Positions 27,394-64,000 of a stretch of DNA of 64,000 nucleotides are shown one piece after another; within the stretch, counting starts at the first letter, position 1; each line of letters begins with the position of its first letter. Origin of the DNA: Squalus acanthias (taxonomy: Eukaryota). The translations under genes and the position numbers were made by a program. The notes below the pieces were generated by a model. It made no database searches. It had not been told where the DNA came from and saw only the letters and a list, made by a program, of their open reading frames with translations. The stretch covers positions 2,480,001 through 2,544,000 of the forward strand of contig CM059441.1 in NCBI GenBank assembly GCA_030390025.1. Direction: 5' to 3'.

Positions 27394-27833
27394 CATAGAA
27401 ACATAGAAACATAGAATCTAGGAGCAGGAGTAGGCCATTCGGCCCGTCGAGCCTGCTCCACCATTCAATACGATCATGGCTGATCATCCAAATCCAGTAC
27501 CCTGTCCCTGCTTTTTTAATCCCCACAGTACACATATCCCACCCTACCCCCGTAACCCCACGTATTTAATTCCCCCTAACATATCCCATCCTATCCCCAT
27601 AACCCCACATATTTAATCCCCCCCTAACACTAAGGGTCAATTTATCATAGCCAAATCAACCTAACCCGCACATTTTTGGACTGTGGGAGGAAACCGGAGC
27701 ACCCGGAGGAAACCCACGCAGACACGGGGAGAATGTGCAAACTCCACACAGACAGTCACCCGAGGTCAGATTCGAACCCGGGTCCCTGGCGCTGTGAGGC
27801 ACCAGTGCTAACCACTATGCCACCGTGTTGCCC
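27394..27833 (-). mobile_element. HE1-type V-SINE nested in Gypsy RT
   Basis: tRNA head (GGTTCGAATC B box), V-domain GGGTTTCCTCCGGGTGCTCCGGTTTCCTCCCAC, CR1-like tail and (TTTCTATG)n end. Confidence 0.85.
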
Positions 27834-28179
27834 ACAGTATCAACAGTATCTCACCAACAACACACATAAGGGATTGTACTCATAAAGCTGCCGTATGGTG
27901 TAAAGACCTCCCCAAAAATCTTCCAGGCTACGATGGATAAGATTTTGCAAGGATAAGATTTTGCAAGGAGTTCCAAATTGCTTATGCAATCAAGACGATG
28001 TGCTGATCGTAACAAGCGGCGAGGAAGAAAATCTAGAAGTGCTAGATATAGTGCTTCAAAGGTTGAATGCCCACAACATCAAATTGAAATGGAGCAAATG
28101 TGCTTTTGTGCATTGAGTTTGTGTACCTTGGTCTGAAAGTTGATTCAAATAGCTTGCAACCAGTGAAAGAAAAGGTTGA

Positions 28180-29929
28180 AATAACAACAGAAAACGCTGG
28201 AAAAACTCAGCAGGCCAGGCAACATCCGTGGAGAGAGAAAGAGAGTTAACGTTTCAGGTCGAAACCCTTCGTCGGAACTGAGAGAGCAAGAAATAAACAG
28301 ATAAAAATGCAAGGGGGAGGCTGGGGGGAGGAATAAAAGAACAAAAGGGATGGTCTTTAGTGAGTAGAGACATTGAGAGATGCTCAAGGCAAGACGAGAT
28401 GGTAATGGGACAGGTTGAGAAACAAAAGGTAAGGTGTGAAATGCTAGCAGAATCAGAGACAGCTGCCGTGGGGGGAGAGAGAGAAAAAAAGGAAAAAGGC
28501 ACGGACCAAAAGAGTGGATAAAATGTATACGTATGTGGTAGGGGCCGGGGTTATGATCTGAAATTGTTGAACTCGATATTGAGTCCGGAAGGCTGTAAAG
28601 TGCCTAAACGAAAGATGAGGTGCTGTTCCTCGAGCTTACGCTGAGCTTCCGTGGAACAATGAAGAGGCCGAGGACGGTGAGGTCTGAGTGAGCGTGGAGG
28701 GGTGAATTAAAATGACAAGCGACCGGAAGCTCGGGGTCACCCTTCCAGACTAAACGGAGGTGTTCCGCAAAGCGGTCACCCAATCTGCGCTTGGTCTCCC
28801 CAATGTAGAGAAGACCACATCGTGAGCAGCGAATACAGTATACTAGATTGCAAGAAGTACAAGTAAATCGCTGTTTCACCTGGAAGGGGTGTTTTGGGCC
28901 CTGGAGAGTGGGAAGGGGGGATGTATAAGGGCAGGTGTTGCATCTCCTGCGCTTGCACGGGAAGGTGCCAGGGTGAAGGGGAAGGGGTGCTGGGGGTGAT
29001 AGAGGAGTGGACTAGGGTGTCTCGGAGGGAGCGGTCCCTACGGAATGCTGAAAGGGGAGGTGAGGGGAAGATGTGTTTGGTGGTGAGATCACGTTGCAGG
29101 TGGCGGAAATGGTGGAGGATGATCCGTTGAATGTGGAGGCTGGTGGGGTGAAAGGTGAGGACAAGGGGAACTCTATCGTGGTTCCGGGAGGGAGGGGCCG
29201 GGGTGAGGGCAGAAGTGCGGGAGATGGAACGGACACGGTCGAGGGCCGTGTTGATCACGGTAGTGGGGAATCCTCGGTTGAGGAAAAAGGAAGACATGTC
29301 GGAAGCACTGGTATGGAAGGTGGCATCGTCGGAGCAGATACGGCGGAGACGGAGAAACTGGGAGAAGGGAATAGAGTCCTTACAGGAGGCGGGGTGGGAG
29401 GAAGTGTAGTCCAGGTAGCTGTGGGAGTCAGTGGGCTTGTAGTGAATGTTGGTCAATAACCTATCCCCAGAGATGGAGACGGAGAAGTCGAGGAAGGGGA
29501 GGGAAGAGTCGGAGATGGACCATGTGAAGGTGAGGGAAGGGTGGAAATTGGAGGCAAAGTGAATGAAATTGTCTAGTTCAGGGCGAGAGCAGGAAACGGC
29601 ACCGATACAGTCGTCAATGTATCGGAAAAAGAGGTGAGGGAGGGGACCCGAGTAGGACTGGAACAAAGAGTGTTCCACATATCCCACGAAAAGGCAGGCA
29701 TAGCTAGGACCCATGCGGGTACCCATAGCAACACCTTTGATTTGGAGGAAATGAGTGGAGTCAAAGGAGAAGTTGTTCAATGTGAGAACAAGTTCAGCCA
29801 GGCGGAGGAGGGTGGCGGTGGATGGGGACTGGTTGGGCCTCTGTTCAAGGAAGAAGCGGAGCGCCCTCAGGCCATCCTGGTGGGGGATGGAGGTGTAGAG
29901 GGATTGTACGTCCATGGTGAAAAGGAGGC
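28180..29929 (-). mobile_element. Penelope-like element family A (Neptune-like), 5'-truncated, nested in Gypsy pol
   Basis: RT DVQSLYTSIP, GVAMGT, RYIDD; GIY-YIG NLVYCIRC..LYIGET in a shifted frame; 12-bp TSD AGAAAAGGTTGA at 28168-28179 and 29930-29941. Confidence 0.95.
28244..28279 (-). ncRNA. Hammerhead motif with core substitution (CCGACGA)
   Basis: AGUU-CCGACGA-A-GGGUUUCGACCU-GAAA-CG-UU-AACU. Confidence 0.65.
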
Positions 29930-31982
29930 AGAAAAGGTTGATCCTGTCATCAATGCTCCAAAGCTACAGAATGTGTCCGAGTTAAGATCTTTCCTTGGAA
30001 TGGTCCAGTACTATGCACGTTTCTTACCTGAGTTAGCGACCATGTTACCTCGATTGCATGAGCTCCTCAAGAAGGATGTCCAGTGGAAGTAGACAAAAGC
30101 GCAACAGGAAATTTATGACGCTTGTAAGAGAAGTCTCTCTAGTGATGCTCTACATGTGCACTACTACACAGAGCGTGAACTTAAGTTAGCGTGTGATGCT
30201 TCTAGCTACAGTGTGGGAGCTGTCATAAGCCATGTAATGGATGATGGCAAGAGAAACCAATAGCGTTCGCATTGCGAACCCTCACAAAGAGCAAAAGAAA
30301 CTACGTGTAAATTGAAAAGGAAGCACTCGCCATAATGTTTGGAATCAAGAAATTCCAACAGTTCCTGATCAGCAGAAATTTTACCCTGATAACCGATTAC
30401 AAACCGCTCCTAGCAATATTGGGGCCCAAATCTGCCATCCCTGCAATGGCCGCATCGAGAATGTAATGTTGGGCAGTGTTGTTGTCACAATATGACTAAA
30501 CGATTGAATATCGTACTTCAAAGCAAAACGCAATCACAGATGTCTTGTCCAGGTTGCCACATGAGGACTCGTGTTGGGAGTGAAGGGGCAATTTTCACGC
30601 TAGGTGCAGTTGACAAAAACTGCACCTGAGATAGCAGATGAGACTCAAAAGGACTCAGTACTGAAAAGAGTGTATGAAAACACTTTGAATGTATGGACGA
30701 TCAGTGTATAGACACAGAATTGAAACCATTCCATAACCGTCATACTGAATTGTCCTGTGAGCAAGGTTGTATCAAGTGGGGAAACAGAGTGGTGGTACCT
30801 TCTTCTTTGAGAGATAGAATTCTGGCTGAACTTCATACTGAACATCCAGGGATCGTCAGTATGAAATCAATTGCAAGAAGGTTTTTTTCCTGGCCTGGAT
30901 TGGACAGTGATCGTGAATCACTTGTCAACAAATGCAACGTTTGCCAAAATTGCAGAAACAAACCACCTAAAACTCCACCACAGCCCTGATCATGGCCAAG
31001 TAGACCTTTTCAGAGAGTACATGAAGACTTCTGTGAGAAAGCAAATGATTATTTCCTGGTACTTGTAGATAATCACTCAAAGTGGATTGAAGTGAAACAC
31101 ATGGGTTCAAATACTGCAACTGAACATACCAATGATGAGCTGAGGTCTATCTTTGCATGTCATGACTTGTTCCTGACAATGACCCTTAGTTCTGTTCTGC
31201 TCTATTCCAAGAATTCATGAAACGGAATGGTATCATCAAGCTTCAAATGGAGCAGCTGAAAGGTCAGTTAAAATAGTGAAAGAAGCTCTCAAAAAGCAAG
31301 TGTTGGAGGGTTGTTCAGGACTCAGCATGAAGCAACATTTGGATAATGTCTTGCTGAAGTACAGAACTACTCCGCACACTACAACTGGACATACCCCAGC
31401 AAAACTCTTGATGAAGAGGAGATTGAGAACACAATTGAGTCTGGTTCAACCGAATTTTGCCTCATGAGTTGAACAGAAACAGTTGAGTCAGAAATGTTAT
31501 GACAGCAATCAGAAAGAACGCAGTTTCAAACAAAACAAGTGTGTTCGTGTTCTCAGTCCCCCAGGCAAGTCGAGTTCACACAAATGAAACTCTGGTGATA
31601 GATCTGACAGCTTTGCTGAGTGCTCAGACTGCTGCCATCATGGCTCTGAGGACTAGCATCTCAAGTTTTCAATCCATGAAGGAGATCATGGATAGGAGTG
31701 TGGAGAGCATGAATGTGGGCTTCCAGAGCATCACTGCACTCCTTCACTCTATTCTCATGCAAAGCAGAGGGAGTGTGAAGGCGCAGCCCCATGAGAGTGG
31801 CTTGAGCTCCATGGAGAGGCTGCCTCACACAGGATTCTTCAGCGACCCTGGCAGCTGCCATTGAAAGGTACATTTAATTAATGAAAAAAAAAGTTAATGT
31901 GGAGCCAGGAGCAGCAGGAGTGGCGATCACCTAACCCCCCTACCCCATAACCCATTCAATTCCACCCTCCTGGGATTTACCC

Positions 31983-32155
31983 GAGTCAGAAGGTTGTGGG
32001 TTCAAGCCCCACCCAAAGGACTTGAGCACACATTCTAGGCTGACACTCCAGTGCAGTACCGAGGGAGTGCTGCGCTGTCGAAGGTTCCGTCTTTCAGATG
32101 AGACGTTAAACAGAGACCCTGTTTTCCTGTTCAGATGGAAGTAAAAGATCCCTGC
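31983..32155 (+). mobile_element. Partial SacSINE1-like DeuSINE
   Basis: Aligns to 36552-36722. Confidence 0.8.
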
Positions 32156-33712: not shown

Positions 33713-34125
33713 TCATTCGCTGGAGTATAGAAGAATGAGAGGGGATCTCATCGAAACATATAAAATTCTGACAGGTCTGGACAAACTAGATGCAGGAAGA
33801 ATGTTCCCGATGGTCGGAGAGTCCAGAACCAGGGGTCATAATCTAAGGATAACGGGTAAGCCATTTAGGACAGAAATGAGGAAGAATTTCTTCACCCAGA
33901 GAGTGGTGAACCTGTGGAATTCTCTACCACAGAAGGTAGTTGAGGCCAAGTCATTAAATATATTCAAGAATGAGTTAGATATATTTCTTAAAGCTAAAGG
34001 TATCAAGGGATATGGGGAGAAGGCAGGTACAGGGTACTAAGTTTGGATGATCAGCCATGATCTCATTGAATGGCAGAGCAGGCTCGAGGGGCCGAATGGC
34101 CTACTCCTGCTCCTATCTTCTATTC
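33713..34125 (+). mobile_element. CR1 3' fragment
   Basis: SLEYRRMRGDLIETYK...KGYG plus 3' UTR. Confidence 0.9.
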
Positions 34126-34269
34126 CAGCAATTTTGCTTCTACTATTTACCCAGGAGTACATTCCATGTATTGATCATCTTTTGTGTGAAGGAGAACTAC
34201 CCAACATTGGCCCTAAGTTTGCCATTAACTAGCTTGAACCTGTGCACCCTGTCCTACTGTTGCAATTTA

Positions 34270-35730
34270 GTTTAAAATAATTTTCTACATCTATCTTTTC
34301 CATACCATTTATTTTCATAATAGACATCTGTAAGGTCACTCCTCACCCTTTATACCTCAGATTCATGATTCAAGGGGTCAGCTTCATGTCTCTTCTCTGA
34401 ATTGTCTCCAAAGCTCAAAAGCCTCCTTTGCATCTCAGTGTCCAAATCTGGACACAATACACAAGATGTAGTCTGACCAGAGCACTATAGAGCTTGAGCA
34501 TGACTTCTTCTAACTTGTATTCTACTATTTTGGCTATATAGTTCAACGTTCTATTTGCTTCATTGATTGCTGCTCTCCAATGATTGGAAATATTGGCCCA
34601 GAAATTAAAGACGGAGCCTTCCTGTGGGGGTAAGGCTTCCCCGCGATATCTCACTGCGCGCCTGCCTTTTCCTTCCGAGCTCACACGAGCTTTAGTTTCA
34701 AGGCTGCAGCTGTGCAGTGTGTGCGTATCCCACAGACGGAGTTAGTTCGTGCGAGCTCTGGGATCACGTGATTCAGTTAGAGCCAATGGCAGCACACCAT
34801 CTTTCATTCATAGTTTTGACAGCAAGGGCTGTGAAAGCTATGAATCTATACCCCCCCAAAAGAACAGCTAAACCTCAATTAAATTTAAAAAAAAGCCATC
34901 ACATTAATAAAATAAGTATAGTTAAATAAATTAACCACTTTAAACAAAAAATTAAATTTTTGAAAAAATTTAAAATCTTTTTAAAAGTTATAAAAATAAA
35001 CTTACCTTTCTTTAAAGTCTCTAAAAAAGATATACCTGTTGAAAAAAATTTAAAATAATTCTTAATTAACTACTTACCTTGTTAAAAGAGGGTCTTACGC
35101 CTCCTTTCTTTATGTGCAAAATCTTCCATGCTAACCTGCGCGTTCAAAGCACTAAGTGCACTGAGTGCGCGCAGCCTGTAGCGCGCACGCGGTTCACCTA
35201 GGAACCGCCCCCTTTTGAAATCACCAAGTGCCGGTTTCCCACGCATGCGCAGTGCATGCAGAAAACCGGCAATTGGAGACAGAATACGCGAGAGTACACA
35301 GTGCGTACTCTCGCGTACTGAGACTAGTTTTTGGGCCATTGAGTAATAAGTCAACCTGCCTCAGTTTATCTCTTTCAACTTCATTGTTAGCTATTGAGAC
35401 ACTATTTGAGGAGTGCATGTGTTGTCCATTTTTCTTCTTACGTGTAGTGCTGTATTACATTTCCTCTGTCATTATTCCACCTTCTCACATATTTTATCCA
35501 ACTCATTTTGTATTTGCTGAGCTGCCTACTCAGATTAACTGCTTGTCTTAATTTGGTATCATCTGCACCATATGAAACCTGGACATTGATTAAATTAGAA
35601 ACTGTAATAATCCCATAACAGATCTCTGGGAGCACCACTCAACACTTCCCTCGACCCTGATAGAACTCCTAAGTAATCATTCAGAGTACTAACTATCTTA
35701 TGGTCATCTTCCATTTCTGCCCTATTTACA
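34270..35730 (-). mobile_element. Old CR1-like fragment split by a MITE
   Basis: EVMLKLYSALVRLHLVYCVQIW and ADDTKL motifs on either side of the MITE. Confidence 0.6.
34595..35337 (-). mobile_element. Harbinger-type MITE related to 14128-14866
   Basis: GGCCCAGAAATT and AGTTTTTGGGCC ends, ATT TSD; 34960-35270 is reverse-complement similar to 14175-14500. Confidence 0.85.
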
Positions 35731-36513: not shown

Positions 36514-36990
36514 GTGTCAGCCGTGGCTCAGTGGGTAGCACACTCGCCTCTGAGTCAGAAGGTTGTGGGTTCAAGTCCCACTCCAGGGACTTGAGCACAT
36601 AAAGATAGGCCGACACTGCAGTGCGGTGCTGAGGGAGTGCCGCACTGTCGGAGGTGCCGTCTTTCGGATGAGACGTTAAACCGAGGCCCCGTCTGCTCTC
36701 TCAGGTGGACGTAAAAGATCCCATGGCACTATTTCGAAGAAGAGCAGGGGAGTTATCCCCGGTGTCCTGGCCAATATTTATCCCTCAACCAACATAACAA
36801 AAACAGATTATCTGGTCATTATCACATTGCTGTTTGTGGGAGCTTGCTGTGCGCAAATTGGCTGCTGCATTTCCCACATTACAACAGTGACTCCACTTAA
36901 AAAGTATTTCATTGGCTGTAAACTGCTTTGAGACGTCCGGTGGTCGTGAAAGGTGCTATAGAAATGCAAGTCTTTCTTTCTTTCTTCTTC
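36514..36990 (+). mobile_element. Full-length SacSINE1-like DeuSINE
   Basis: A box TGGCTCAGTGG, B box GGTTCAAGTCC, Deu-domain-like body, L2-like tail, (CTTT)n end. Confidence 0.85.
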
Positions 36991-38074
36991 TCTGACTGCC
37001 CTCTTTGTTGAAGCACTGAAATAACTTTTATTATCTTCTTTTGTCTGCAGCAATGCTTTTCGCCATGCCTCACTTTGTCCTTCTGACCAGCCTTTTAACA
37101 TGCTTCTCTGTATCCTATATTCATCCACATTATATACCTGGCTCCTGATTCTCTGTATTTCTAAGTCCCAGATCATGTCGAAGACATGTTGAACACAAAT
37201 AGTTGCACTCGAGTTAAACAGAAGCAACTGAGCACATTTTCAGGTCTCACAGTATAGTCCCAGTACATACAACCAACAGGATTCAGCATAAACAACCTAA
37301 TCTGTGAAACAAAATATCTGCATTATTCATTATAGTGTAGTAGTCGCTACAATGTATCTATCTCTATCAATTGATAGCAAGTCAATTTCACAATACACAT
37401 TGCAGCTTCACTTGTGGTTACGCACATTGCGAAATTTCAATTCATTGTTTTCAGTAAAACGGGTTGCATTACATACATCCTTTTGGAACTAGTTATGGCA
37501 GGAGTCGCTAAGCTATTTGCCCATGTGGGCCACTTAGCTGCATATTATGCAGATTTTATGAATTTGTGCTGCTGGAAGGAAAATCTTTTGAGCCCCACTG
37601 ACTTCTATGCCAGAATTACCAATATGTGCTCCTGGAATGCAAAGCTCTGCACAGCAAACATAAATTTGTAAAATCTACCATTTAAAGTTTAATCAATGTT
37701 GCCATTAATTTGTATACATCTCAAGCTGTGGATAAACAAAGCATGCAATCATAGAATGTTACAGCAAAGAAAGAGGTGATTTGGCCATCAAGTCTGTGCT
37801 GGTGTTTATCTCCACTTCTTCTCGTCTATTCCCATGTCCTTTAATATTCCTCTGTTTTGCTTGTTGTATTTGTGCTCTTCTTAGTTTGGAGGGTGGTGCA
37901 GAGGTTTTTTTTAAACTTGACCTTCCTAGTGGCCGGCCTTAGTAAATCCACCAGGTTTTCTCTGGGGTTGCTGCTGACTGCATGAGGCCCACACACCGGG
38001 AGCTGGTGGCATTAACATCGCACCAGCATGATACCTGGACTTCAAGGGTTAAGTTACGAGGAGAGGTTACACAA

Positions 38075-38460
38075 ATTAGGGGTGATCTGATCAAAGTTTT
38101 GAGGATATTACGGGGAACAGATAGGGTAGATAGAGAGAAACTATTTCCACTGGTTGGGGACTCTAGGACTAGGGGGCATAGTCTAAAAATTAGAGCCAGA
38201 CCTTTCAGGAGTGAAATTAGGAAACACTTCTACACACAAAGGATGGTAGAAGTTTGGAACTCTCTTGCACAAATGGCAATTGATGCTAGATCAATTGTTA
38301 ATTTTAAATTGGAGATTGATAGCTTTTTGCTAACCAAAGGTATTAAGGGATATGGGGCAAAGGCGGGTACATGGAGTTAGATCGCAGATCAGCCATGATC
38401 TCAGTGAATGTCGGAACAGGCTCGAGGGGCTGAATGGCCGACTCCTGTTCCTATGTTCCT
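38075..38460 (+). mobile_element. CR1 3' fragment
   Basis: RGDLIKV..TRGHSLKI..VWNSL plus UTR. Confidence 0.9.
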
Positions 38461-47409: not shown

Positions 47410-49152
47410 TCACGTCATGTATCGTGACATAAACCCAAGATCCCGATTGAGACCGTCTTCATGAGTGCGGAACTTGGCTATCAGTTTCTGCTCGATGATT
47501 TTGCGTTGTCGTGTGTTTCTAAGGTTGCCTTGGAGAACGCTTACCCGCAGATCCGAGGCTGAATGTCCTTGACTGCTGAAGTGTTCCCCGACTGGGAGGT
47601 AACAATCCTGCCTGGCGATTGTTGCGCGGTGCTCGTTCATACGTTGTCTCAGTGTCTGCATGGTCTCGCCGATGTACCATGCCGCGGTGCATTCTTTCCT
47701 GCAACGTATGAGGTAGACAACGTTGGCCGAGTCACATGAGTATGTACCATGTACCTGGTGGGTAGTGTCCTCACGTGTGATGGTGGTATCTGTGTTGATG
47801 ATCTGGCATGTCTTGCAGAGTTTGCCATGGCAGGGTTGTGTGGTGTCGTGGTCGCTGTTATCCTGAAAGCTGGGTAATTTGCTGCGAACGATGGTACTTC
47901 TGAGGTTAGGCGGCTGTTTGAAGGCAAGTAGTGGAGGCGTGGGGATGGCCTTAGCGAGGTGTTTGTCGTCATCGATGACATGTTGAAGGCTGCAAAGAAC
48001 ATGGCGTAGTTTCTCCGCTCCGGGGAAGTACTGGACGACGTAGGGTACCCTGTTGGTTGTGTCCCGTGTTTGCCTTCTGAGGAGGTCTATGCGATTTTTC
48101 GCTGTGGCCCGTCGGAACTGTCGATCGATGAGTCGAGCGTCATATCCCGTTCTTACGAGGGCGTTTTTCAGCGTCCGTAGGTGTCCATCGCGTTCCTCCT
48201 CGTCTGAGCAGATCCTGTGTATTCGCAGGGCTTGTCCATAGGGGATGGCTTCTTTAACATGGTTAGGGTGGAAGCTGGAGAAGTGGAGCATCGTGAGGTT
48301 GTCCGTGAGCTTGCGGTAGAGTGAAGTGCTGAGGTGTCCGTCTTTGATGGAGATTCGTGTGTCCAGGAATGAGACTGATTCTGAGGAGTAGTCCATGGTG
48401 AGTTTGATGGTGGGATGGAACATGTTTATGTTATCGTGTAGTCTTTTCAGTGATCCTTCGCCATGGGTCCAAAGGAAGAAAATGTCGTCGATGTATCTGG
48501 TATACAGCGTTGGCTGGAGGTCTTGTGCAGCGAAGAAGTCTTGCTCGAACTTGTGCATGAAGATGTTGGCGTATTGGGGTGCGAATTTGGTCCCCATGGC
48601 TGTTCCGTGTGTTTGGGTAAAAAAATGGTTGTCGAAGGTGAAGACATTGTGGTCAAGGATGAAGCGGATGAGTTGTAGGATGGCGTCTGGAGATTGGCTG
48701 TTGTTGATGTTGAGTACTGAGGCTGTTGCAGCGATGCCGTCATCGTGGGGGATACTGGTGTAGAGTGCCGATACGTCCATCGTGGCAAGGAGTGTTCCTG
48801 GTTCAACTGGTCCATGGGTGCTGAGTTTCTGTAAGAAGTCTGTAGTGTCGCGACAGAAGCTGGGGGTTCCCTGTACGATGGGTTTCAGAATGCCCTCGAC
48901 GTATCCAGAGAGGTTCTCACACAGGGTTCCATTGCCTGATACGATAGGACGTCCGGGTGTGTTGGCTTTGTGTATCTTTGGGAGGCAGTAGAAGTCTCCC
49001 ACGCGGGGATTACGTGGGATGAGAGCGCATAGGATGTTTTGAAGGTCTGGATCGAAGGTCTTGATCAGTCTATTGAGTTGGCGGGTGTGTTCTTTGGTCG
49101 GATCTGCGGGTAGCTGTCTGTAGTGTTCCTGGTTGTCCAGTTGTCGGTATGC
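47410..49152 (-). CDS. PLE reverse transcriptase / GIY-YIG endonuclease, uninterrupted but lacking its N-terminus
   Basis: YCLPKIHK, GRPIVS, DVSALYTSIP, GTAMGT, RYIDD, CHGKLCKTC linker, NVVYLIRC..WYIGET; frame stays open upstream of the listed start (AYRQLDNQEHY..). Confidence 0.9.
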   Translation of the reverse strand, partial: AYRQLDNQEHYRQLPADPTKEHTRQLNRLIKTFDPDLQNILCALIPRNPRVGDFYCLPKIHKANTPGRPIVSGNGTLCENLSGYVEGILKPIVQGTPSFCRDTTDFLQKLSTHGPVEPGTLLATMDVSALYTSIPHDDGIAATASVLNINNSQSPDAILQLIRFILDHNVFTFDNHFFTQTHGTAMGTKFAPQYANIFMHKFEQDFFAAQDLQPTLYTRYIDDIFFLWTHGEGSLKRLHDNINMFHPTIKLTMDYSSESVSFLDTRISIKDGHLSTSLYRKLTDNLTMLHFSSFHPNHVKEAIPYGQALRIHRICSDEEERDGHLRTLKNALVRTGYDARLIDRQFRRATAKNRIDLLRRQTRDTTNRVPYVVQYFPGAEKLRHVLCSLQHVIDDDKHLAKAIPTPPLLAFKQPPNLRSTIVRSKLPSFQDNSDHDTTQPCHGKLCKTCQIINTDTTITREDTTHQVHGTYSCDSANVVYLIRCRKECTAAWYIGETMQTLRQRMNEHRATIARQDCYLPVGEHFSSQGHSASDLRVSVLQGNLRNTRQRKIIEQKLIAKFRTHEDGLNRDLGFMSRYMT

Positions 49153-49489
49153 TTCATATTATTAAACATCGCTGTATTGTAGGAAATATATTTTTCCATA
49201 GGTGCTGAATTACTCTCAAAGTACAAGCAGTTCATTATATGGCAGTTAACAATTTTACCCTTTTTTAGTGCATTCACAGGAACACCCAACTTTACTCTGT
49301 ATACATTCTGGAAGCTCCAGTGCATTAGGCTGTGTGAAATATGCAGAACTGGGTGTCCATTTGGAAAGAATACTGGTCAAATAGCTGAACAGCCACTTAA
49401 CCAGTATGAATTGTGCACAGCGTAAATCTAGTTGTGAAAGGCACAATCTTTGTGAGAAATGGAAGGCGAATAACAAAGGCATAAATCAA

Positions 49490-49785: not shown

Positions 49786-51410
49786 CAACAACAACAACAA
49801 CAACTTGTATTTATATAGCGCCTTTAACATAGTAAAATGTCCCAAGGTGCTGTACAGGAGTATTTTAAGACAAAAAATTTGACACCGATCCACATAAGGA
49901 TAAATTAGGGCAGATGACCAAAAGCTTGGTCAAGGAGGTAGGTTTTAAGGAGCATCTTAAAGGAGGAAAGAGAGGTAGCGAGGTGGAGAGGTTTAGACAG
50001 GGAATTCCAGAGCTTAGGGCCTAGGCAACAGAAGGCACAGCCACCAATGGTTGAGCGATTATGTTCAGGGATGCTCAAGAGGCCAGAATTAGAGAAGCGC
50101 AGATATTTCGGGGGGTTGTGGGGCTGAAGGAGATTACAGAGATAGGAAGGGGCGAGGCAATAGAGGGATTTGAAAACAAGGATGAGAATTTTGAAATCAA
50201 GGCGCTGCTTAACCGGGAGCCAATGTAGGTCAGCGAGCACAGGGGTGATGGGTGAACGGGACTTGGTGCGGATTAGGACACGGGCAGCCGAGTTTTGGAT
50301 GACCTCAAGTTTATGTAGGGTGGAATGTGGGAGGCCAGCCAGGAGTGCGTTGGAATAGTGAAGTCGCGAGGTATCAAAGGCATGGATGAAGGTTTCAGCA
50401 GCGGATGAGCTGAGGCAAGGGCGGAGACGGGGCGATGTTACGGAGGTGGAAGTAGGTGGTCTTAGTTATGCTGCGGATATGTGGTCGGAAGCTCATTTCA
50501 GCGTCAAATATGACACCAAGGTTGCGAACAGTGTGGTTCAGCCTCAGACAGATGTTAGGGAAAGGGATGGAGTCAGTGGCTGGGAACGGAGTTTGTGGCG
50601 GGGACCGAAAAGAATGGCTTCGGTCTTCCCAATATTTAATTGGAGAAAATTTTTGCTCATCCAGAACTGTATGTTGGACAAGCAGTCTGACAATTTAGAC
50701 ACCATGGAGGGGTCGAGAGAAAAGATAGTGAGGTAGAGCTGGGTGTCGTCAGCGTACATGCGGAAACTGACACTGTGTTTTCAGATGATGTCACCAAGGG
50801 GCAACATGTAGATGAGAAATAGGAGGGGGCCAAGGATAAATCCCTGGGGGACACCAGAGGTAACGATGCGGGAGCGGAAAGAAAAGCCATTGCAGGTGAT
50901 TCTCTGGTTACGATTAGATAGAGAAGAATGGAACCAGGCGAGTGCAGTCCCACCCAGCTGGACGACGGTGGAGAGGCGTTGGAGAAGGATGGAATGGTCA
51001 ACTGTGTCAAAGGCTGCAGACAAGTCAAGAAGGACAAGGAGGGATAGTTTACCTTTGTCACAGTCACAAAGGATGTCATTTATGACTTTGATGAGAGCCA
51101 TTTCGGTACTGTGACAAGGGTGGAAACCTGATTGGAGGGATTCAAACATGGAATTGCGAGAAAGATGGGCACGGATTTGGGAGGCAACAACACATTCAAG
51201 GGGGGAACCTTAGAGGAAGTTTGGCCCGGTGGGCTAGGGAAAGGAAGGGAAGTGGCAGAGGCAGCTGAACGGATTGTCTCAATCTTAGAGAAGAAGAAGT
51301 CCATGAGCTTCTCACACTTGCTGTTGGAGGTGAGGGTGATGGAGACAGGGGAGAGGGGTTTAAGAAGACGGTTAGCAGTAGAGAATAGGAGCAACATAAA
51401 TGCAGAGGGA
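49786..51410 (-). mobile_element. L2 LINE, 5'-truncated with internal deletions, (TTG)n tail
   Basis: LQSGF..HSTE, LDLSAAFDTVDH, GVPQG, YADDTQLY, LHWLPVKQRLDFK. Confidence 0.9.
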
Positions 51411-54868: not shown

Positions 54869-55333
54869 AGAAAGAAAAGAAAGACTTGCATTTATATAGC
54901 GCCTTTCATGACCACCAGATGTCCCAAAGCGCTTTACAGCCAATGAAGTACTTTTGGAGTGTAGTCACTGTTGTAATGTGGGAAAGGCGGCAGCCAATTT
55001 GCGCACAGCAAGCTCCCACAAACAGCAATGCGATAATGACCAGATAATCTGTTTTGGTTATGTTGATTGAGGGATAAATATTGGCCACAACACCGGGGAT
55101 AACTCCCCTGCTCTTCTTCGAAATAGTGCCATGGGATCTTTTACGTCCACCTGAGAGAGCAGACAGGGCCTCAGTTTAACGTCTCATTTGAAAGACGGTA
55201 CCTCCAACAGTGTAGCACTCCCTCAGCACTGAACTGGAGTGTCAGCCTAGATTTATGTGCTCAAGTCCCTGGAGTGGGACTTGAACCCACAACCTTCTCA
55301 CTCAGAGGCGAGTGTGCTACCCACTGAGCTACA
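54869..55333 (-). mobile_element. Full-length SacSINE1-like DeuSINE
   Basis: Reverse-complement match to 36520-36990. Confidence 0.85.
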
Positions 55334-55524
55334 TAAGTATCATAGTTATTACATTGATACTTAATTATCTTTAGTTTATGTTAAATAGGTTTCTAATTTG
55401 TTTACACATCTCTCTTTCCAACAGTCTTTTATTTTTTATTTCTCTCAGTAAACCATACATTAGGAAAAACTCATATCATAATGTAAGTCCATAAATAGAA
55501 TAGAGCAGATTGAATGCATTCTGG

Positions 55525-56010
55525 TATGAGGAGGTTTACCAGGATGTTACCAGGAATGAGGGACTTCAGTTATGAGGAGAAGTTGGAAAAGTTAGGACTG
55601 TTCTCCTTGGAACAGAGAAGGTTAAGAGGTGACCTAATAGAGGTTTTCAAGATGATGAGAGGTTTTCATCGAGTAAATTGGGAAAAAATATTCCCTCTGG
55701 CGAGTTGGTTAATAACTAGAGGTCATAGATTCAAAATCATTGGAAAAAGATCTAGAGGGGAGATGAGGAGAATTTTTTTCACTCAGAGAGTTGTGAGGAT
55801 CTGGAACGCTCGACCTGAAAAGGTGGTGGAAGCGGATTCCATAAATAATTTTAAAAGGGAGTTGGACAGGTACTTGAGGAGAAACTTACAGGGTTACGGA
55901 CAAAAAGCGGGGATGTGGGACTGAGCACGACTGCTCTTTCAAAGAGTCAGCACAGGCACGACGGGCCGAATGGCCTCCTTCTGTGCTGTAAGTTTCTATG
56001 AATCTATGAA
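55525..56010 (+). mobile_element. CR1 3' fragment with (TCTATGAA)n tail
   Basis: RRFTRMLPGM..RRLRGDLIEVFK. Confidence 0.9.
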
Positions 56011-56560: not shown

Positions 56561-56649
56561 ATGATAGGGTATTTGATTATGTGACCAAACTATATGGCTA
56601 GGTATCCCTGCTCCCCACCCACCCACCCACCCAAGTGAAAGCTTGCATC

Positions 56650-58797
56650 CGCTTAAACAAAGGCAATTATAATGGCATGAGGGCAGAACTGGCTAAAGTG
56701 GACTGGAAAAACAAATTAAAGGGTAAGAAAGTTGAAATGCAGTGGCGGACATTTCAGGAGATATTTCATAACTCTCAACAAAAATATATTTCAGTGAGGA
56801 AGAAAGATTTTAAGAGACGGGAGCAGCATCTGTGGCTAAGTAAGGAAGTAAAGGATGGTATCAAATTGAAATCGAAGGCATACAATGTTGCCAAGATTGG
56901 TGGGAGACCAGAGGATTGGGAATTTTTTTAAACCAGCAAAGGATGACTCAAATAATAAAGAGAGAGAGATGAATTATGAGAGTAAGCTGGCAAGAAACAT
57001 TAAAACAGATAGTAAGAGCTTCTACAGGTATATAAAAAGGAAGAGCGTAGCTAAAGTAAACGTTGGTCCCTTAGAGGATGAGACTGGGGAATTAATAATG
57101 GGGAACGGGGAAATGGCAGAAACTCTGAACAAATATTTTGCATCTGTCTTCACTGTAGAAGACACTAACAACATCCCAATAATGGATAATCAAGGGGCCA
57201 CAGGGAGTGGGGAACTAAAGACAATCACTATCACTAAGGAAATAGTACTCGGTAATATAATGGGACTAAAAGACGACAAGTCCCCTGGACCAGATGGCCT
57301 GCATCCCAGGGTCTTAAAAGAAGTGGCTGCAGAGATAGTGATGCATTGGTTGCAATATACCAAAGTTCCCTGGACTCTGGAGAGGTCCCAGCGGATTGGA
57401 AAACCGCTAATGTAACACCCCTATTTAAGAAAGGAGGGAGACAGAAAGCAGGAAACTATAGACCAGTTAGCCTAACATCTGTCGTTGGGAAAATGCTGGA
57501 GTCCTTCATTAAGGAAGCAGTAGCAGGGCATTTAGAAAAATATACTGCAGCCAAACAGAGTCAGCATGGTTTTAGGAAAGGGAAATCATGTGTAACAAAT
57601 TTGCTGGAGTTCTTTGAAGATGTAACAAGCAGGGTGGACAAGGGTGAGCCAGTGGATGTGGTGTATTTGGATTTCCAGAAGGCATTCGATAAGGTGCCAC
57701 ATAAAGGGTTACTGCATAAGATAAGAGCTCATGGAGTTGGGGGTAATATATTAGCATGGATAGAGGATTGGCTAACTAACAGAAAGCAGAGAGTCGGGAT
57801 AAATGGGTCTTTTTCCAGTTGGCAAGCAGTAACTAGTGGGGTGCCACAGGGATCGGAGCTGGGGCCCCAACTATTTACAATCTACATTAATGACTTGGAT
57901 GAAGGGATTGAGTGTAATGTAGCCAAGTTTGTGGATGATACAAAGATGGGTGGGAAAGCAAGTTGTGCAGAGGACTCAAAGAATCTGCAAAGGGATAAAG
58001 ACAGGCTAGGTGAGTGGGCAAACATTTGGCAGATGGAGTATAATGTGAGAAAGTGCGAGGTTATCTACTTTGGCAGGAAAATTAAAAAAGCAAACTATTA
58101 TTTAAATGGAGAGAGATTACAAAATGCTACCGTTCAGAGGGACCTGGGGGTTCTTGTGCTTGAAACACAAAAAGTTAGCATGCAGGTAAAGCAAGTAATC
58201 AAAAAGGCAAATGGAATGTTGGCCTTTATTGCAAGGGGGTTGGAGTATAAAAGCAGGGAAGTCCTGCTACAACTGTACAGGGTATTGGTGAGACCACACC
58301 TTGAGTACTGCGTACAGTTTTGGTCTCCTTATTTAAGGAAGGATATACTTGCATTGGAGGCAGTTGAGAGACGATTCACTTGGTTAATTCCAGAGATGAG
58401 GGGTTTGACTTATGAGGAAAGGTTGAGCAGGCTGGGCCTATAATCATTGGAATTTAGAAGAATGAGAGGTGATCTTATCGTACATGTAAGATACTGAGGG
58501 GGCTCGACAGGGTAGATGCAGAGAGGATGTTTCCCCTCATGGGGAAATCTAGAACTCGGGGACACAGTCTCAGAATAAAGAGTCGCCCTTTTAGAACTGA
58601 GATGAGGAGGAACTTCTTCTCTCAGAGGGTCGTAAATTTGTGAAATTCTCTGCCCCAGAGAGCTGTGGAGGCTGGGTCATTAAATACATTTAAAGTGGGG
58701 ATAGACAAATTTTTGCAAGATAAGGGAGTGAAGGGTTATGGGGAGCGGGCTGGGAAGTGGCTTTGAGCCCAAGATCAGCCATGATCTTATTGAATGG
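56650..58797 (+). mobile_element. CR1 LINE (ORF2), interrupted in its 3' UTR by the ERV
   Basis: Frameshifted ORF2 pieces 56635-58443; UTR stops at ..tgaatgg where the LTR starts. Confidence 0.95.
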
Positions 58798-59396
58798 TGT
58801 GGAAGTGTATTTTTAGTTGGATATAAAATGGTTTCTCGGATACAATAAAATGGCTTCCTAAGACACAGAATATAAAATCTAAAATGGCCTACACAATGTC
58901 TGTTAGAAAGATTAGCCAATTGTTTATAGTTTCAACCTAATGAAGGAATTTCAGTTTGTAAACTGTTTTAATTGCCCCCAATAAATAATTTAGGATTGTA
59001 GATCAAAGAGGTTGACAAAGCTATGGTGTGAGTACTATCTCCCTTGAATTCTAGATGGTGTGGTGGCAGAAGTCACACGTCCCCTTTGGAGGGATTCTTG
59101 TTGTTTTAAATCTTTATGACCTCAAGAAAGACCTTTCATGTACAGTATATACAAATATCCTTTTAACTTGTTTTATAGGCACTATGCTGTCAATTAATGA
59201 TTTATTACCATGTCATGTGATATAGGAAGCTTGTATTGTTTCTGTGTATAAATTTCGAGCAGTTTTTGTATTTGCAGAGTGTCATCATAGTCTAGTTTTG
59301 ACTATGGTTGCATTCTCCTTGCAGCAAGTAAAATATTAAACTTCCTTTGACGATAACTTATGTTTTGAGTCTTACTCGGAAGTCGAAACTTCGACA
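58798..59396 (+). repeat. 5' LTR of endogenous retrovirus
   Basis: TGTGGAAGT...ACTTCGACA terminal inverted repeat (8/9), TATAAA near 59247, ATTAAA at 59335, followed by the PBS. Confidence 0.85.
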
Positions 59397-59404
59397 GTAT
59401 TACT

Positions 59405-59422
59405 TGGAGGTTCCACCGAGAT
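59405..59422 (+). promoter_or_regulatory. Primer binding site, tRNA-Gln
   Basis: TGGAGGTTCCACCGAGAT, the 18-nt complement of the tRNA-Gln 3' end. Confidence 0.9.
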
Positions 59423-59435
59423 CGCTTGCTACCTT

Positions 59436-59444
59436 TCGGTAAGT
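59436..59444 (+). promoter_or_regulatory. Candidate major splice donor of the ERV
   Basis: TCG|GTAAGT just 3' of the PBS. Confidence 0.55.
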
Positions 59445-60142
59445 CACGGACAAAGGACACCACAAATTTCTAGTGACAAATCCTGAATGGCCACAAGTGA
59501 TGTTTTATCACATAAAAAGGATTTCTCATTAGATACTAAATTGGTGCTGTCTGTTTCTTCCGACAGGGACACAGCGATCTGTAGGACTCGAGTTTTGGAT
59601 TTGAGTTGAATCCTGTAACTTTTGCTTCTTTTATTTCTAATGTTAAGAGGAGGGGGAGGATTTTGGTGGCTCAAGTTTCAAAACTATCGGGCAGAGGAGG
59701 TAAAAAAAAAAAAGTCGGCAGGGTTGTGTCCCGGACTAAAAGGTACCAGGTTATGAGAAAGCGCTAAAAGATTAAAACTGCAGTATCAAGGGTGGGTCCC
59801 TTGAGCCGGAGAAAAGAGTCTCGCGGCAGAAAGGTTTAGATAAGAAACCTTCATATATAGAGTATAAGTTAAATGTTAAGGACCCAGTTTGTAGTGGCGA
59901 ACAACGCAAACTGGGAATTGACTATTTGTTTAGCTTAAAGTATAAGGTTAAATGTTTGATTACTTGATTTGTTTGCCTGTTTGGGTTTTTTTGCGTTACT
60001 TATCATTGTCTTTATTGTTGTTAATTCTTGTTATTGTTTGTCATTTGTGGAGCTCCGAAGGGTTAATAATAATCGTAAAGGGGTAAAGGGTGAAATTTGC
60101 AATTCCGAAGACGAGTGCCTAGTATAACTAAACTTTACTAAG

Positions 60143-61789
60143 ATGGGAGCTTCACAGAGCAAGATCCCAGAAAAAGGAACTCCAGCCTTTTACATCTTCC
60201 AGAACTGTGGTTGGATGTCCACAAGGGATTTGCCTGATTGGTCCAAATGGACCAAGAATGGCAGACACCCGTTCCCCATTGATGGAACCTTTAATGTGGA
60301 TAGAATTACATGTCTGGAGGACTGTCTCATAAGTAGAGACCCACAAAGAAAAGGTAAAAAGTCAGTAAATTGGTCAGCCTTTTCAGACTGGAAAAAGGAA
60401 GCAGAAAGGCGTAAGGACCGTAGTATAGAAGCCAGTAGATCTGAAATTAAAAATAAGAGAAAAGAGCAAGAGCCGAGTGGTAAATTGGCTAAACAAGATG
60501 AAGTTAGACAAATGACTTTAAGACAAACCCCGAAGCCTACCGCTCAAACCTCTCTTTACCCTCCTTTACCCACGTCTCACTCAAGTGATGACGCGGATGA
60601 GGGATGGTACAGAAAACCTCCCGCATATGAAGAGCGACTACAGGGTACAGCGAATAGTGAAGTACCCGACCTCCAAAATGGAGATCAGGGGTCTAGCCCA
60701 GATCACACCACCGTTAACGGAGGTCCAAGTCATTATACCAGATCCCACACAGTCCGCAATATGCATCCGCTCAGACGGTTCCCCAATGTCCACGAGTCTG
60801 ACGGAGATCCAGTCGTTGTCCATCGCCCATGGACAGCTTCCGAGCTACGGACAATAATCCACGAGTTACCGAACCCCTCAGAGGATTTAGAAAAAGCAAT
60901 TAGTGAGCTCAAAAGCACCATTATTTGCCATCAGCCCACTATTGTGGACGTTGACCAGCTACTCAGGGCTTGGTTAAAAGATTCCAGATACCGCCTTCTA
61001 ACAGAAGGCGAAGATAGTTTCAAAGATATTAACGATCATAAAACAAACAGGGGATGGAATCCAGAAACACTACCAAATGATCAATTCTGGACCGAATTGT
61101 ATAGAGTAATGCATATTAAATTCCCAAAAAGAACTAATTGGACAAAAATAATTGAGACAACTCAGAAAAAGGACGAAGACGTTGAGGATTATATAGAAAG
61201 AATAGAAGCAGTTATGGGGCAGCATTCTGGAATGACCAAAGAAAATTACCAGATTCCTTTAATCAATGCCCTTGTAAATGGTCTCAGAGCGGAACTTAAA
61301 GAACCACTGACTCTCGTCTGCCTAGATTGGAGACATAAAACAACTCCTGAGTTAACACAAATTCTAAAAGGAATTCAGGAGAGAAATAGAGACCAAAAGA
61401 ACAAGGTTTCCCTCTTAATGGAACAAGCAGCTTTTGCAGCCCCGACTGCCCAGACAACCATTTATTATCAGGGTCAATACAGAGGACAAGGCAGAGGGAA
61501 TAACAGGGGTAGATTTAAAGGAAGAGGTAGAGGAGGGACAGGCAGAGGCCAGTGGAACGGAGGAGGTGCAAACTCTCCATGTTTTAACTGTGGTCAGATC
61601 GGACACTGGAAGGCTAACTGCCCGTTCCCCAAGCAGCAAAGTCAAGGCTGGGGAGGTGCACCAAACGATGTAGATACCCAAGCCCAGGTTTACACTCGTC
61701 CGCAGGCAGGTTTTACAACAGGGAACCCTTGGGGAGGTCAAAATATGGAAGGACAATTTGGATCCCCATGGCAAAATTATTCAAAATGA
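60143..61789 (+). CDS. gag: Retroviral Gag polyprotein, 548 aa
   Basis: MGASQS myristoylation signal, FPIDGTF, LYPPL and PPAY late-domain motifs, MHR-like QKKDEDVEDYIERI, RG-rich tract, CFNCGQIGHWKANC zinc knuckle. Confidence 0.95.
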   Translation: MGASQSKIPEKGTPAFYIFQNCGWMSTRDLPDWSKWTKNGRHPFPIDGTFNVDRITCLEDCLISRDPQRKGKKSVNWSAFSDWKKEAERRKDRSIEASRSEIKNKRKEQEPSGKLAKQDEVRQMTLRQTPKPTAQTSLYPPLPTSHSSDDADEGWYRKPPAYEERLQGTANSEVPDLQNGDQGSSPDHTTVNGGPSHYTRSHTVRNMHPLRRFPNVHESDGDPVVVHRPWTASELRTIIHELPNPSEDLEKAISELKSTIICHQPTIVDVDQLLRAWLKDSRYRLLTEGEDSFKDINDHKTNRGWNPETLPNDQFWTELYRVMHIKFPKRTNWTKIIETTQKKDEDVEDYIERIEAVMGQHSGMTKENYQIPLINALVNGLRAELKEPLTLVCLDWRHKTTPELTQILKGIQERNRDQKNKVSLLMEQAAFAAPTAQTTIYYQGQYRGQGRGNNRGRFKGRGRGGTGRGQWNGGGANSPCFNCGQIGHWKANCPFPKQQSQGWGGAPNDVDTQAQVYTRPQAGFTTGNPWGGQNMEGQFGSPWQNYSK

Positions 61790-64000
61790 CGCAGAGAAAC
61801 AGCCCCGAATGTTACCCACATTCTTCAGTTACCTTCAGTATCAGTAAATTCTAAAGATGAGCCATACTTATCCATAAAAATGCAGGGCAAGAAAGTTCCT
61901 TTTCTTGTTGACACAGGAGCCACAAGCTCACTATTAACAAAGCAATATTCTAGAAGAGCCCCATGTACAGAAAAGAATGTCACATGTGTAGGACTCTCTG
62001 GCGTCTCACAGACTATGACGTGGTCACAACCACTTTCAATACAAACAGACAATTTTTCTGGTCAGCACATCTTTCTCCTATCAGACGACGCCCCTATGAA
62101 CCTTTTAGGGAGAGATTTGCTATGCAAAATGCAAGCAACAATAATATGTTCCGAAAAAGGACTACAGGTGTACATCCCTACTGATAGATGCACTATGTGT
62201 CCTTCACAAGAATGCTCCCCTCCAGTTATTTCACGAGAAACAGAGCAACTGCTGGATCAAATTCCGCCACAAGTATGGTCTAGCCATTCAAACGAGGTTG
62301 GCAAAATGCTAACTGCTCAGCCATACAAAGTTACGTTAAGACCATCCGTCCGATTGCCCCGTAGACCTCAGTACCCGCTTTCAACAGCAGCCGAACAAGG
62401 AATTCAGCCTGTCATTAACTCTTTGTTACAGCAAGGAATAATAATTCCAACCCAGAGCCCATGCAACACTCCAATTTTGCCAGTCGAAAAGAAGGAAAGT
62501 GGGAAATGGAGACTAGTGCAAGATCTCAGAGCAGTTAACGAATCAGTACTACCAGTTTATCCAGTTGTGCCAAATCCTGCTACCATTCTAACTAGTATTC
62601 CCTCTGGATCAAAGTATTACACTGTCATCGATTTATGTTCAGCTTTCTTCAGTATCCCTATCCACCAAGATTCACAGTTCCTATTCGCTTTCACATTTAA
62701 AGGGACACAGTTCACTTGGACAAGACTTCCACAAGGTTACACAGAGAGTCCCACAATCTTTTCTCAAAGCCTCAAGCGTGATTTAGAGGACATTCTCTTC
62801 ACTGGAGGGTCCACACTTATCCAATATGTCGATGATTTGCTGATAGCTTCGCCTGATAAACAGTCATGTCAAACTGACTCGCTTATTATGCTTCATGCCT
62901 TAGCAGTAAAGGGACATAAAGTATCACGTTCCAAGATGCAGTTCGTGTCAGAGAAAGTACAGTATTTGGGACATGAACTCCGTGCTGATAGCCGCTGTCT
63001 GTCGCAGGGGAGGATCAGAGCAATTTGTGAAGCACCGTTACCTACTACTAAACAGCAATTAAAACATTTTCTTGGCATGTCAGGATACTGTAGACAATGG
63101 ATCATGGGGTATTCAGACCTGGTGCGCCCATTGCTTGATATCTCCATGGAGGAAGACCCTCTTGCTTGGAATCAGAAGGCAAAGGACGCCTTTGAGAATG
63201 TCAAGCAAGCCCTTATATCGGCTCCAGCATTAGGGCTGCCAGACTATCAGAAGCAGTTCAATCTTTTTGTCCATCATAAATTGGGCTTTGCTCAATCTGT
63301 TTTGACTCAAACCCATGGTGATAAACAAAGACCTTTAGCCTATTTCAGTACTCAATTAGATCCTGTTGCACGCGGCCTGCCTGGATGCCTGCCAATTCTA
63401 GCCGCCGCCTATTATGCTGTACAACAGGCTCAAAGTATCACGCTCAATCACCGGACTATTTTATTTGTGCCACATTCAGTCGAAGTACTGTTGACAAAAT
63501 GCGCCACTCAACATCTGACATCAGCTCGCAGCAGTAAATATGAGGTTGAATTATTGTCCAACCCTAATCTCCTAATTCAAAGATGTTCGGTTTTGAATCC
63601 AGCCACACTGCTGCCCACAGAAGAAGATGGAATCCCACATTGCTGCGAGACGGTCACCCAATTGGTGACCAAGCCTCGAATAGATCTATCTGAAACTCCT
63701 ATTTCTAATAGTGACTTAATATACTACGTAGACGGGTCAGCTCTTAGGGATGACAAAGGATCACCCAGAGCTGGCTATGCCATATCAGATGATCATTCAG
63801 TTGTAGAAGCGCTCTCATTACCTCAATCTTTTTCAGCACAACAAGCAGAACTTTTCGCTCTTACAAGGGCTTGTATACTGGCTACTGATAAATCTGTTAA
63901 CATTTATACCGACTCCCGGTACGCTTTTGGGGTCGCCCATGACTACGGACAGATCTGGAAACTAAGGGGATTTCTAACTTCTTCAGGATCGACTATTAAA
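61790..64000 (+). CDS. pol: Retroviral Pro-Pol (PR, RT, RNase H), in frame with gag, runs off the window
   Basis: Manual translation found no stop: FLVDTGA, NLLGRDLL, WRLVQDLRAVN, LPQG, YVDD, YVDGS, AELFAL, IYTDSRYAFG; absent from the ORF track, probably because no stop lies in the window. Confidence 0.95.

Follow-up and report, generated by a model that had tools for sequence, protein, structure and literature searches.

The described systems closest to the element considered here include epsilonretroviruses and epsilon-like endogenous retroviruses (ERVs). Walleye dermal sarcoma virus (WDSV) and the walleye epidermal hyperplasia viruses (WEHV-1 and WEHV-2) carry gag and pol in a single frame with a UAG stop at the gag-pro junction, and the swim bladder sarcoma virus of salmon (SSSV), zebrafish ERV (ZFERV) and Rhinella marina ERV (RMEV) carry a UGA at that junction, which reads UGACGA in ZFERV; gammaretroviruses use UAG-G with a pseudoknot, and the same 2026 review lists readthrough as unverified in epsilonretroviruses (PMC13517186). 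The coelacanth element CoeERV1-1 is described as epsilon-like, as closest to the ERVs of turtles and crocodiles, as having a target-site duplication (TSD) of 3–5 nt and as surviving mostly in deleted copies (PMC4255032), and it provides a precedent for fish–turtle affinity (PMC4255032, PMC4977317). CmiERV II/III of the elephant shark are also epsilon-like, and their described copies are old; CoeERV1-1 and CmiERV II/III are both likened to the present element by description. In one survey ray-finned fishes and turtles emerge as hubs, and cartilaginous-fish retroviruses are found throughout the tree (PMC6001957). The shark and chimaera ERVs reported so far in PMC4422223 and PMC10699275 are old or were reconstructed from fragments, and a 2023 survey of 2004 vertebrate genomes recorded invading ERVs in 0/13 cartilaginous fishes (PMC10435555, Supplementary Data 8), the kind of absence that this survey puts down to limited data. 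The literature searched, which did not take in most subscription papers or the repeat databases, yielded no description of a shark provirus that is intact or polymorphic.

The element described here lies at the end of a 64,000-nucleotide stretch of Squalus acanthias DNA (GenBank assembly GCA_030390025.1, contig CM059441.1, positions 2,480,001 to 2,544,000 of the forward strand), hereafter the window, with positions counted from its first letter. The 5′ portion (5.2 kb) of a class I provirus, read directly, spans position 58798 to the window end at 64000. The reading that we favor, with a probability of about 0.75, is that a class I retrovirus with unbroken gag and pro-pol frames has split a CR1 repeat and that its 5′ half is seen here, that it is likely an epsilon-like provirus of the shark germ line and likely younger than the repeat that hosts it, and that its Gag-Pro-Pol would be made by readthrough of a UGA stop. 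The coding features behind this reading are the following.

60143–61789, + strand: gag, 548 amino acids, from the ATG at 60143 to a TGA stop at 61787–61789 (open reading frame, Pfam, motifs, fold).
Within gag, + strand: MGASQS (Gly2/Ser6, a myristoylation pattern), LYPPL at 60554 and PPAY at 60617 (motif scan).
Within gag, + strand: a major homology region (MHR) pattern at 61163, an RG-rich stretch and one CCHC knuckle at 61580 (motif scan).
61787–61792, + strand: gag-pol junction UGA-CGC, the likely readthrough site (sequence).
61790–64000, + strand: pro-pol, 737 open codons, running off the window end (open reading frame, Pfam, motifs, model).
Within pro-pol, + strand: protease (PR) DTG at 61910 and GRD at 62108, reverse transcriptase (RT) LPQG at 62726 and YVDD at 62825, the connection, and RNase H from about 63713 (motif scan, Pfam).

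The pro-pol frame is that of gag and follows straight after the UGA, which is the sole stop in 1286 codons; over 300 base-shuffled versions of the region the maximum frame length was 201 codons, against the 548 and 737 observed. The motifs are read here as is established for retroviruses, and those listed in an earlier note on this DNA, namely more than 730 open Pro-Pol codons with PR, RT and RNase H motifs, YVDD, LPQG, a single CCHC knuckle and an in-frame gag-pol, are all present, three acidic motifs of RNase H lying within the window while the fourth would fall past 64000. The AlphaFold model of RT is confident (pLDDT 90.9). The best PDB matches of the pro-pol frame are RTs of the murine leukemia virus (MLV)/XMRV type (E 1e-142, against 1e-47 for foamy virus and 1e-37 for Ty3), which score 480 bits, as compared with 165 for foamy virus, 132 for Ty3 and less than 100 for HIV and HERV-K. 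Identities in the RT fold search were 37–44% for gamma- and epsilon-type entries (37% for the top entry, Q2VF30; 38% for WDSV over 329 columns; 44% for a bat gammaretrovirus fragment), against 17–33% for class II, spuma and Ty3/Gypsy entries. The order PR-RT-connection-RNase H, the in-frame gag-pol with one stop and the single CCHC knuckle are class I features. Ty3/Gypsy and spumavirus identities were ruled out by score, knuckle and gene layout.

The earlier note had also called Gag full, and its 548 residues do include late motifs, the MHR pattern, a single CCHC and a capsid fold. Pfam returns zf-CCHC (E 1e-6), with Gag_p30 below its cut-off, and the structure model is mixed (pLDDT 63.6), the confident part matching the retroviral capsids of HTLV-1, MLV and BLV. 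The top four entries of the Gag fold search, all with low TM-scores, were WEHV-2, WDSV, a turtle herpesvirus protein and RMEV; the WEHV-2 and WDSV matches have E values of 7e-14 and 8e-13 at 16–17% identity. At the sequence level Gag is distant from what is known: one search gave 2 matches, at 26% identity, and a comparison with 1.84 billion representatives gave 400 matches at E ≤ 0.001, none of them below 1e-30. Its neighbors in the Atlas are Gag clusters. A glyco-Gag-type in-frame extension was ruled out, the gag frame opening just 5 codons before the ATG.

The second line of evidence is the point of insertion.

56602–58797, + strand: host CR1 long interspersed element (LINE), with a broken ORF2 and a 3′ untranslated region (UTR) (Pfam RVT_1; junction against four other tail copies).
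56602–56931, 56870–57415 and 57256–58443, + strand: frame pieces of the host CR1 ORF2 (open reading frames).
Final four CR1 bases before 58798, + strand: ATGG, the expected TSD if the TSD is 4 bp.
58798–59396, + strand: likely 5′ long terminal repeat (LTR), 599 bp, TG...CA, terminal inverted repeat 8/9 (single copy, ends inferred).

All four of the other CR1 tail copies that reach the junction keep the UTR, and the copy ending at 58797 switches to TGTGGAAG. One of these four also reads TG next, so that the junction possibly lies 2 nt later; the start at 58798 is favored because of the terminal inverted repeat, matched at 8/9 positions, between 58798 and the CA at 59395–59396. The LTR ends thus rest on the CR1 junction, the TG...CA and this inverted repeat, all from one LTR copy, and no second LTR, solo LTR or related ERV was found in the 64-kb window. 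Class I ERVs have two LTRs with TG...CA ends and a TSD of 4–6 bp; of these, one likely LTR with a clean left junction is seen here. The LTR of the earlier note accordingly has boundaries that depend on a single copy, and that note's proposal of a class I ERV nested in a CR1 3′ UTR is supported by the domains, the best PDB matches, the junction and the RT tree. Downstream of the LTR follow the primer region and the donor site.

59397–59404, + strand: 8-nt spacer from the terminal CA to the primer site (sequence).
59405–59422, + strand: primer binding site, 18 nt, complementary to a tRNA 3′ end (sequence; the complement ends in CCA).
59439, + strand: splice donor GGTAAGT, with GT at 59439 (motif just past the primer site).

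The primer site, described as perfect in the earlier note, does comprise 18 nt that read as a tRNA 3′ end with its CCA; we take it to be of the tRNA-Gln type, an isotype not confirmed from the literature, and no tRNA gene was found in the 64-kb window. In the 35 nt that precede the primer site, the CA at 59395–59396 is the sole one. Some ERV groups have spacers of 5–6 nt and the MLV integrase tolerates longer ends, so the 8-nt spacer is an oddity rather than a paradox, and it is real only if the LTR end is correctly placed. A review describes integrase as trimming two or three nucleotides, and for epsilonretroviruses it enters both the att sites and the TSD as unknown (PMC12789967). The splice donor of the earlier note is where it was said to be, right after the primer site, and this position rather than the motif is the evidence for it, because GGTAAGT is present in 11% of 2000 resampled leaders.

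Pol was compared with the best 120 of 660 and the best 120 of 143 matches, and a 375-residue RT stretch with 95 of 242 proteins, all from named non-human organisms; unnamed matches, including the two top-scoring ones (54% and 52%), stand outside the trees, and the nearest relative is possibly among them. Within the 95 named proteins the highest RT identities are those of turtles (Terrapene 60%, Chelydra 58%, Lepidochelys 58%, Caretta 55%, Pelodiscus 55%), followed by eel (55%) and hagfish (55%); the five chondrichthyan rows, of sharks and skates, have 43–50% and Rauscher MLV has 43%. A quick RT tree of 96 rows places the query among turtle ERVs without a resolved order. In a careful tree of 53 of those rows, which supplies the RT phylogeny that the earlier note had called for, the query is sister to the Chelydra ERV at only 81/88, an unstarred branch, and lies outside the starred MLV-containing clade (100/98), as it also does in the quick tree; the label gamma-like for this clade is anchored on one reference. 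Grouping with the sawshark ERV was rejected by the approximately unbiased (AU) test (p 0.001). The turtle class I ERVs therefore rank first by RT identity among the named proteins, yet they are at least 40% divergent and the sister branch is unstarred; the turtle link is a ranking by sequence similarity that the tree backs weakly. In the RT alignment of PMC10435555, 12 rows contain the searched motif; 11 are squamate rows with different flanks, and the remaining one, the invading 9.6-kb element Amar.ERVi.4 of the turtle Actinemys marmorata, is the only row of the 12 that shares the flanking blocks of the provirus, as judged by eye.

The MLV group resembles the provirus in its single CCHC, YVDD, LPQG, in-frame gag-pol and best PDB matches, and differs from it in having a UAG-G rather than a UGA-C stop; the provirus RT is outside the MLV clade and no structure is predicted downstream of its stop. 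Gln primer sites occur in mouse ERVs. The WDSV/WEHV group shares the in-frame gag-pol and gives the best Gag fold matches, but it has UAG where the provirus has UGA, and the WDSV RT is 38% identical. These viruses have an accessory frame upstream of gag (orf C type), accessory frames after env and another primer tRNA, whereas no epsilonretrovirus-type accessory frame was found before gag in the provirus leader, the longest ATG-led frame of which has 44 codons. A UGA at the gag-pro junction is already known from SSSV, ZFERV and RMEV, and it therefore points away from the MLV group; ZFERV UGACGA and provirus UGACGC differ by one base, and RMEV is also the source of the Gag ranked fourth in the fold search. 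The common UGA with SSSV and ZFERV is a shared trait and not proof of kinship. The provirus is best filed as an unclassified epsilon-like ERV lineage, because it lies outside the MLV clade and has a UGA stop, and lacks both the WDSV-type stop and the upstream accessory frame. The epsilon/gamma assignment of the earlier note is in this way kept as to class I and narrowed away from gamma, with a Gag fold nearest to walleye and toad epsilon-type viruses.

A separate observation concerns the herpesvirus entry in the Gag fold search. This protein, at rank 3 (E 1e-11), is annotated as 'ICP4c' of chelonid alphaherpesvirus 5 (UniProt V5NX06). The corresponding gene, HP37, immediately precedes HP36, which encodes a retroviral-type protease, and HP35, with an ERV envelope-type domain, on the same strand (PMC3462797). 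We read this order, HP37-HP36-HP35, as a gag-pro-env cassette that a turtle herpesvirus has captured.

Several results weigh against the favored reading. Integrase, env, the 3′ LTR and the TSD all lie beyond the window end, and the phrase 'apparently intact' in the earlier note holds for the 5′ 5.2 kb, nearly half of a 9–10 kb element being unseen. The trees contain no sequence of an epsilonretrovirus (WDSV), SSSV, ZFERV or RMEV, for which the fold searches stand in, and neither a position next to the MLV-containing clade (p 0.10) nor grouping with a catshark/skate clade (p 0.26) is rejected by the AU test. No stimulatory structure is predicted 3′ of the UGA (z −0.27; 77/200 shuffles as stable) by a model that covers neither pseudoknots nor long-range pairs. 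In alphavirus reporters the UGA-C context by itself yielded low readthrough (PMC3159437). Finally, for the leader the ratio of observed to expected CpG is 0.79, for gag and pol 0.51–0.54, for the LTR 0.41, for the host CR1 0.28, and for the window as a whole 0.45; these levels lend weak support to the youth of the provirus, and they date it little, being close to the window average and below the 0.91 of a neighboring retroelement that we take to be Penelope-like.

How the open frames are to be explained depends on the stop and on the age and completeness of the copy. Were the UGA a nonsense mutation in a once-fused gag-pol frame, Pol would not be made from this copy; the missing stimulatory structure fits such a mutation, as does the unverified state of readthrough in any epsilon-type virus (PMC13517186). 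Against this, the only stop in the whole reading frame falls exactly between the knuckle and the protease DTG, the class I position, and three related aquatic-host retroviruses have UGA there, which makes a chance mutation very unlikely. Even more improbable is that the host has domesticated gag-pro-pol and that selection keeps it open: the frames are open and the copy is single in the window, but it retains its LTR, primer site, leader and stop, and the region around it is filled with repeats, with no host gene found in it. It is likely that the frames are open through little time to mutate, or through a slowly mutating genome, rather than through host use.

There is close to an even chance that the provirus is partly defective or lacks env: with integrase or env disrupted or absent, it would be dead or confined to copying inside the cell. 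Defects are found in most ERVs (PMC10435555), CoeERV1-1 is a case in point (PMC4255032), and the unseen part is large; 3.86 kb of coding sequence without a break, and a leader structure and cis signals that look kept, speak for a sounder copy. It is a substantial possibility, somewhat short of even odds, that the insertion is old and fixed and owes its intact look only to a slow mutation rate of its host. Only 4–5% of random substitutions would make a stop, and the unbroken coding sequence allows a divergence of 0.5–2.0% at 95%, depending on the assumed indel rate, which corresponds to 23–89 Myr at 2.2e-10 per site per year, the rate used in PMC4422223, or to 5–20 Myr at 1e-9. The mutation rate measured in the epaulette shark is 7e-10 per generation (PMC10587355), and elephant shark ERVs with LTRs 2.4–3.3% apart have been dated to 54–75 Myr (PMC4422223). 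The Penelope-like neighbor, too, keeps a 582-codon frame. On the other side, the divergence bound is an upper limit that includes zero, and the provirus is younger than the host CR1 because it is nested in it. That the provirus is recent or still active, as the earlier note suggested, is possible; the contrast which that note drew with decayed neighbors is borne out by the host CR1, whose coding sequence is spread over at least three frame pieces, and is not general, given the long frame and high CpG ratio of the Penelope-like element. A defective copy and an old copy are both compatible with the class I, epsilon-like classification.

The favored reading of a germ-line epsilon-like provirus most likely implies the ordinary class I replication programme of a simple retrovirus, in which the frames, motifs, junction and stop observed here would be put to use through expression, readthrough, splicing, priming and end trimming. 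Further candidate signals for this programme are present in the LTR and leader.

59247–59252, + strand: candidate TATA box, the last of three TATAAA matches in the LTR, picked by expected position.
59276–59316, + strand: predicted hairpin, the likely R start (pair probability 0.97–1.0).
59327–59340, + strand: candidate polyadenylation signals AGTAAA (59327) and ATTAAA (59335) (sequence match).
59439–59566, + strand: candidate leader intron, with the exon from 59567 and a branch-point-like site near 59534–59540 (sequence).
59786–59922, + strand: four predicted hairpins in a cluster, a candidate packaging region (fold scan; interval picked after the scan).

Transcription would start about 25–30 nt past the TATA candidate, and translation of the full-length RNA would begin at the AUG at 60143. 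Because six AUGs lie upstream of it, initiation would be expected to involve internal entry, leader splicing or shunting. At the UGA the majority of ribosomes would terminate and release Gag, and the few that pass the UGA-C context would make Gag-Pro-Pol. Gag would carry a myristate, use PPxY and LYPxL for budding and recognize the RNA to be packaged by the leader hairpins. Minus-strand synthesis would be primed at 59405 by a host tRNA, presumably tRNA-Gln though not confirmed as such; if the LTR end is correctly placed, integrase would have to remove 8 nt at the U5 end and not 2–3, and integration would have taken place into the CR1 tail. Splicing from the donor at 59439 would use an env acceptor past the window and perhaps also the leader acceptor at 59567.

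The RNA signals in this scheme differ in strength. The hairpin at 59276–59316 has a z of −4.6 for the hand-picked interval and −2.9 in the unbiased scan, and no AATAAA was found downstream of the TATA candidate in the LTR. An acceptor site like that at 59567 occurs in 13% of 2000 resampled leaders and is a lead only. Interval 59439–59566 is predicted to fold as a single long rod in which the donor and acceptor sides pair with each other (z −5.35, hand-picked interval), likewise a lead only, since 2/118 host windows also have z < −5. In the unbiased fold scan z was below −3 in 4/18 leader, 3/19 gag, 0/26 pol, 0/8 U3 and 8/118 host windows, and no MLV-type GACG loop hairpin was predicted in the leader. 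The leader peptides of 38–44 amino acids have no Pfam match. Among them, a hydrophobic 44-codon ATG-led frame at 59952–60086 (+ strand), just 5′ of gag, lies in a T-rich stretch and was set aside. A 13-bp helix is predicted between leader positions 60044–60056 and the bases at 60146–60158, right behind the gag AUG (probability 0.79), and several windows in 5′ gag (60143–61030) fold strongly (z to −4.8), with none in pol.

The remainder of the window is occupied by other repeats; no host gene and no Rfam family was found in it. The Penelope-like retroelement at 47410–49158 (− strand) encodes RT with a weak GIY-YIG match in its 582-codon frame and, with its CpG ratio, looks young; another Penelope-like frame, which has 395 codons and shares 34% identity with it, lies at 28776–29963 (− strand) inside a decayed LTR retrotransposon. 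The latter, at 25374–31430 (+ strand), is inferred to be Ty3/Gypsy-like and has a gag-like part at 25374–25994, an RT piece near 27046–27396, an RNase H-like part near 29900–30190 and an integrase near 30780–31430, with a partial duplication at 23588–23981 (94% identity). A 464-bp repeat is present as two inverted copies, 36523–36985 and 54869–55332, that are 92% identical, with a further piece at 31983–32152; we take it to resemble the Deu-domain short interspersed elements (SINEs) of sharks. Further CR1 copies, 67–79% identical to one another or to the interrupted copy, lie at 13723–16236, 19445–20840, 33715–35274, 38074–38458 and 55514–55924, and a decayed LINE of another clade, presumably L2-like, at 49905–51209 (− strand) is about 33% identical to the CR1 RTs. 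The CR1 proteins of the window are 34–47% identical to a bird CR1 piece. The CR1 tail, the SINE and the Penelope-like element presumably resemble shark repeats. Sharks and rays are particularly rich in elements of the CR1 group, and a window that is CR1-rich with a GC content of 38–51% fits elasmobranch genomes (PMC13343379). Judged by these sequence features, a shark or ray host is very likely, in line with the probable shark genome of the earlier note; a host outside the cartilaginous fishes, such as a turtle or coelacanth, would make the turtle-like RT ordinary and fits the five turtle ERVs at the top of the RT ranking, but is improbable.

Set beside the criteria for invading ERVs (ERVi) in PMC10435555, the locus has gag, pro and 737 pro-pol codons open, and one LTR is seen. 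We consider it unlikely that a complete retrovirus is here seen in the course of invading a cartilaginous-fish germ line, which would be the first such case against the 0/13 of that survey; the virus would then belong to a lineage shared with turtles through a marine host jump, use UGA readthrough without a local stimulatory structure and integrate from an unusually long, 8-nt U5 overhang. If the 3′ half is broken or the LTRs have diverged, the provirus would be one more epsilon-like ERV. If the copy is complete and young, retroviruses would have infected sharks recently, and the provirus would add a case to the fish–turtle transmission hub proposed in PMC6001957. It also lends itself to work on two points that reviews list as gaps, namely readthrough of the epsilon type (PMC13517186) and the att sites and TSD of epsilonretroviruses (PMC12789967).

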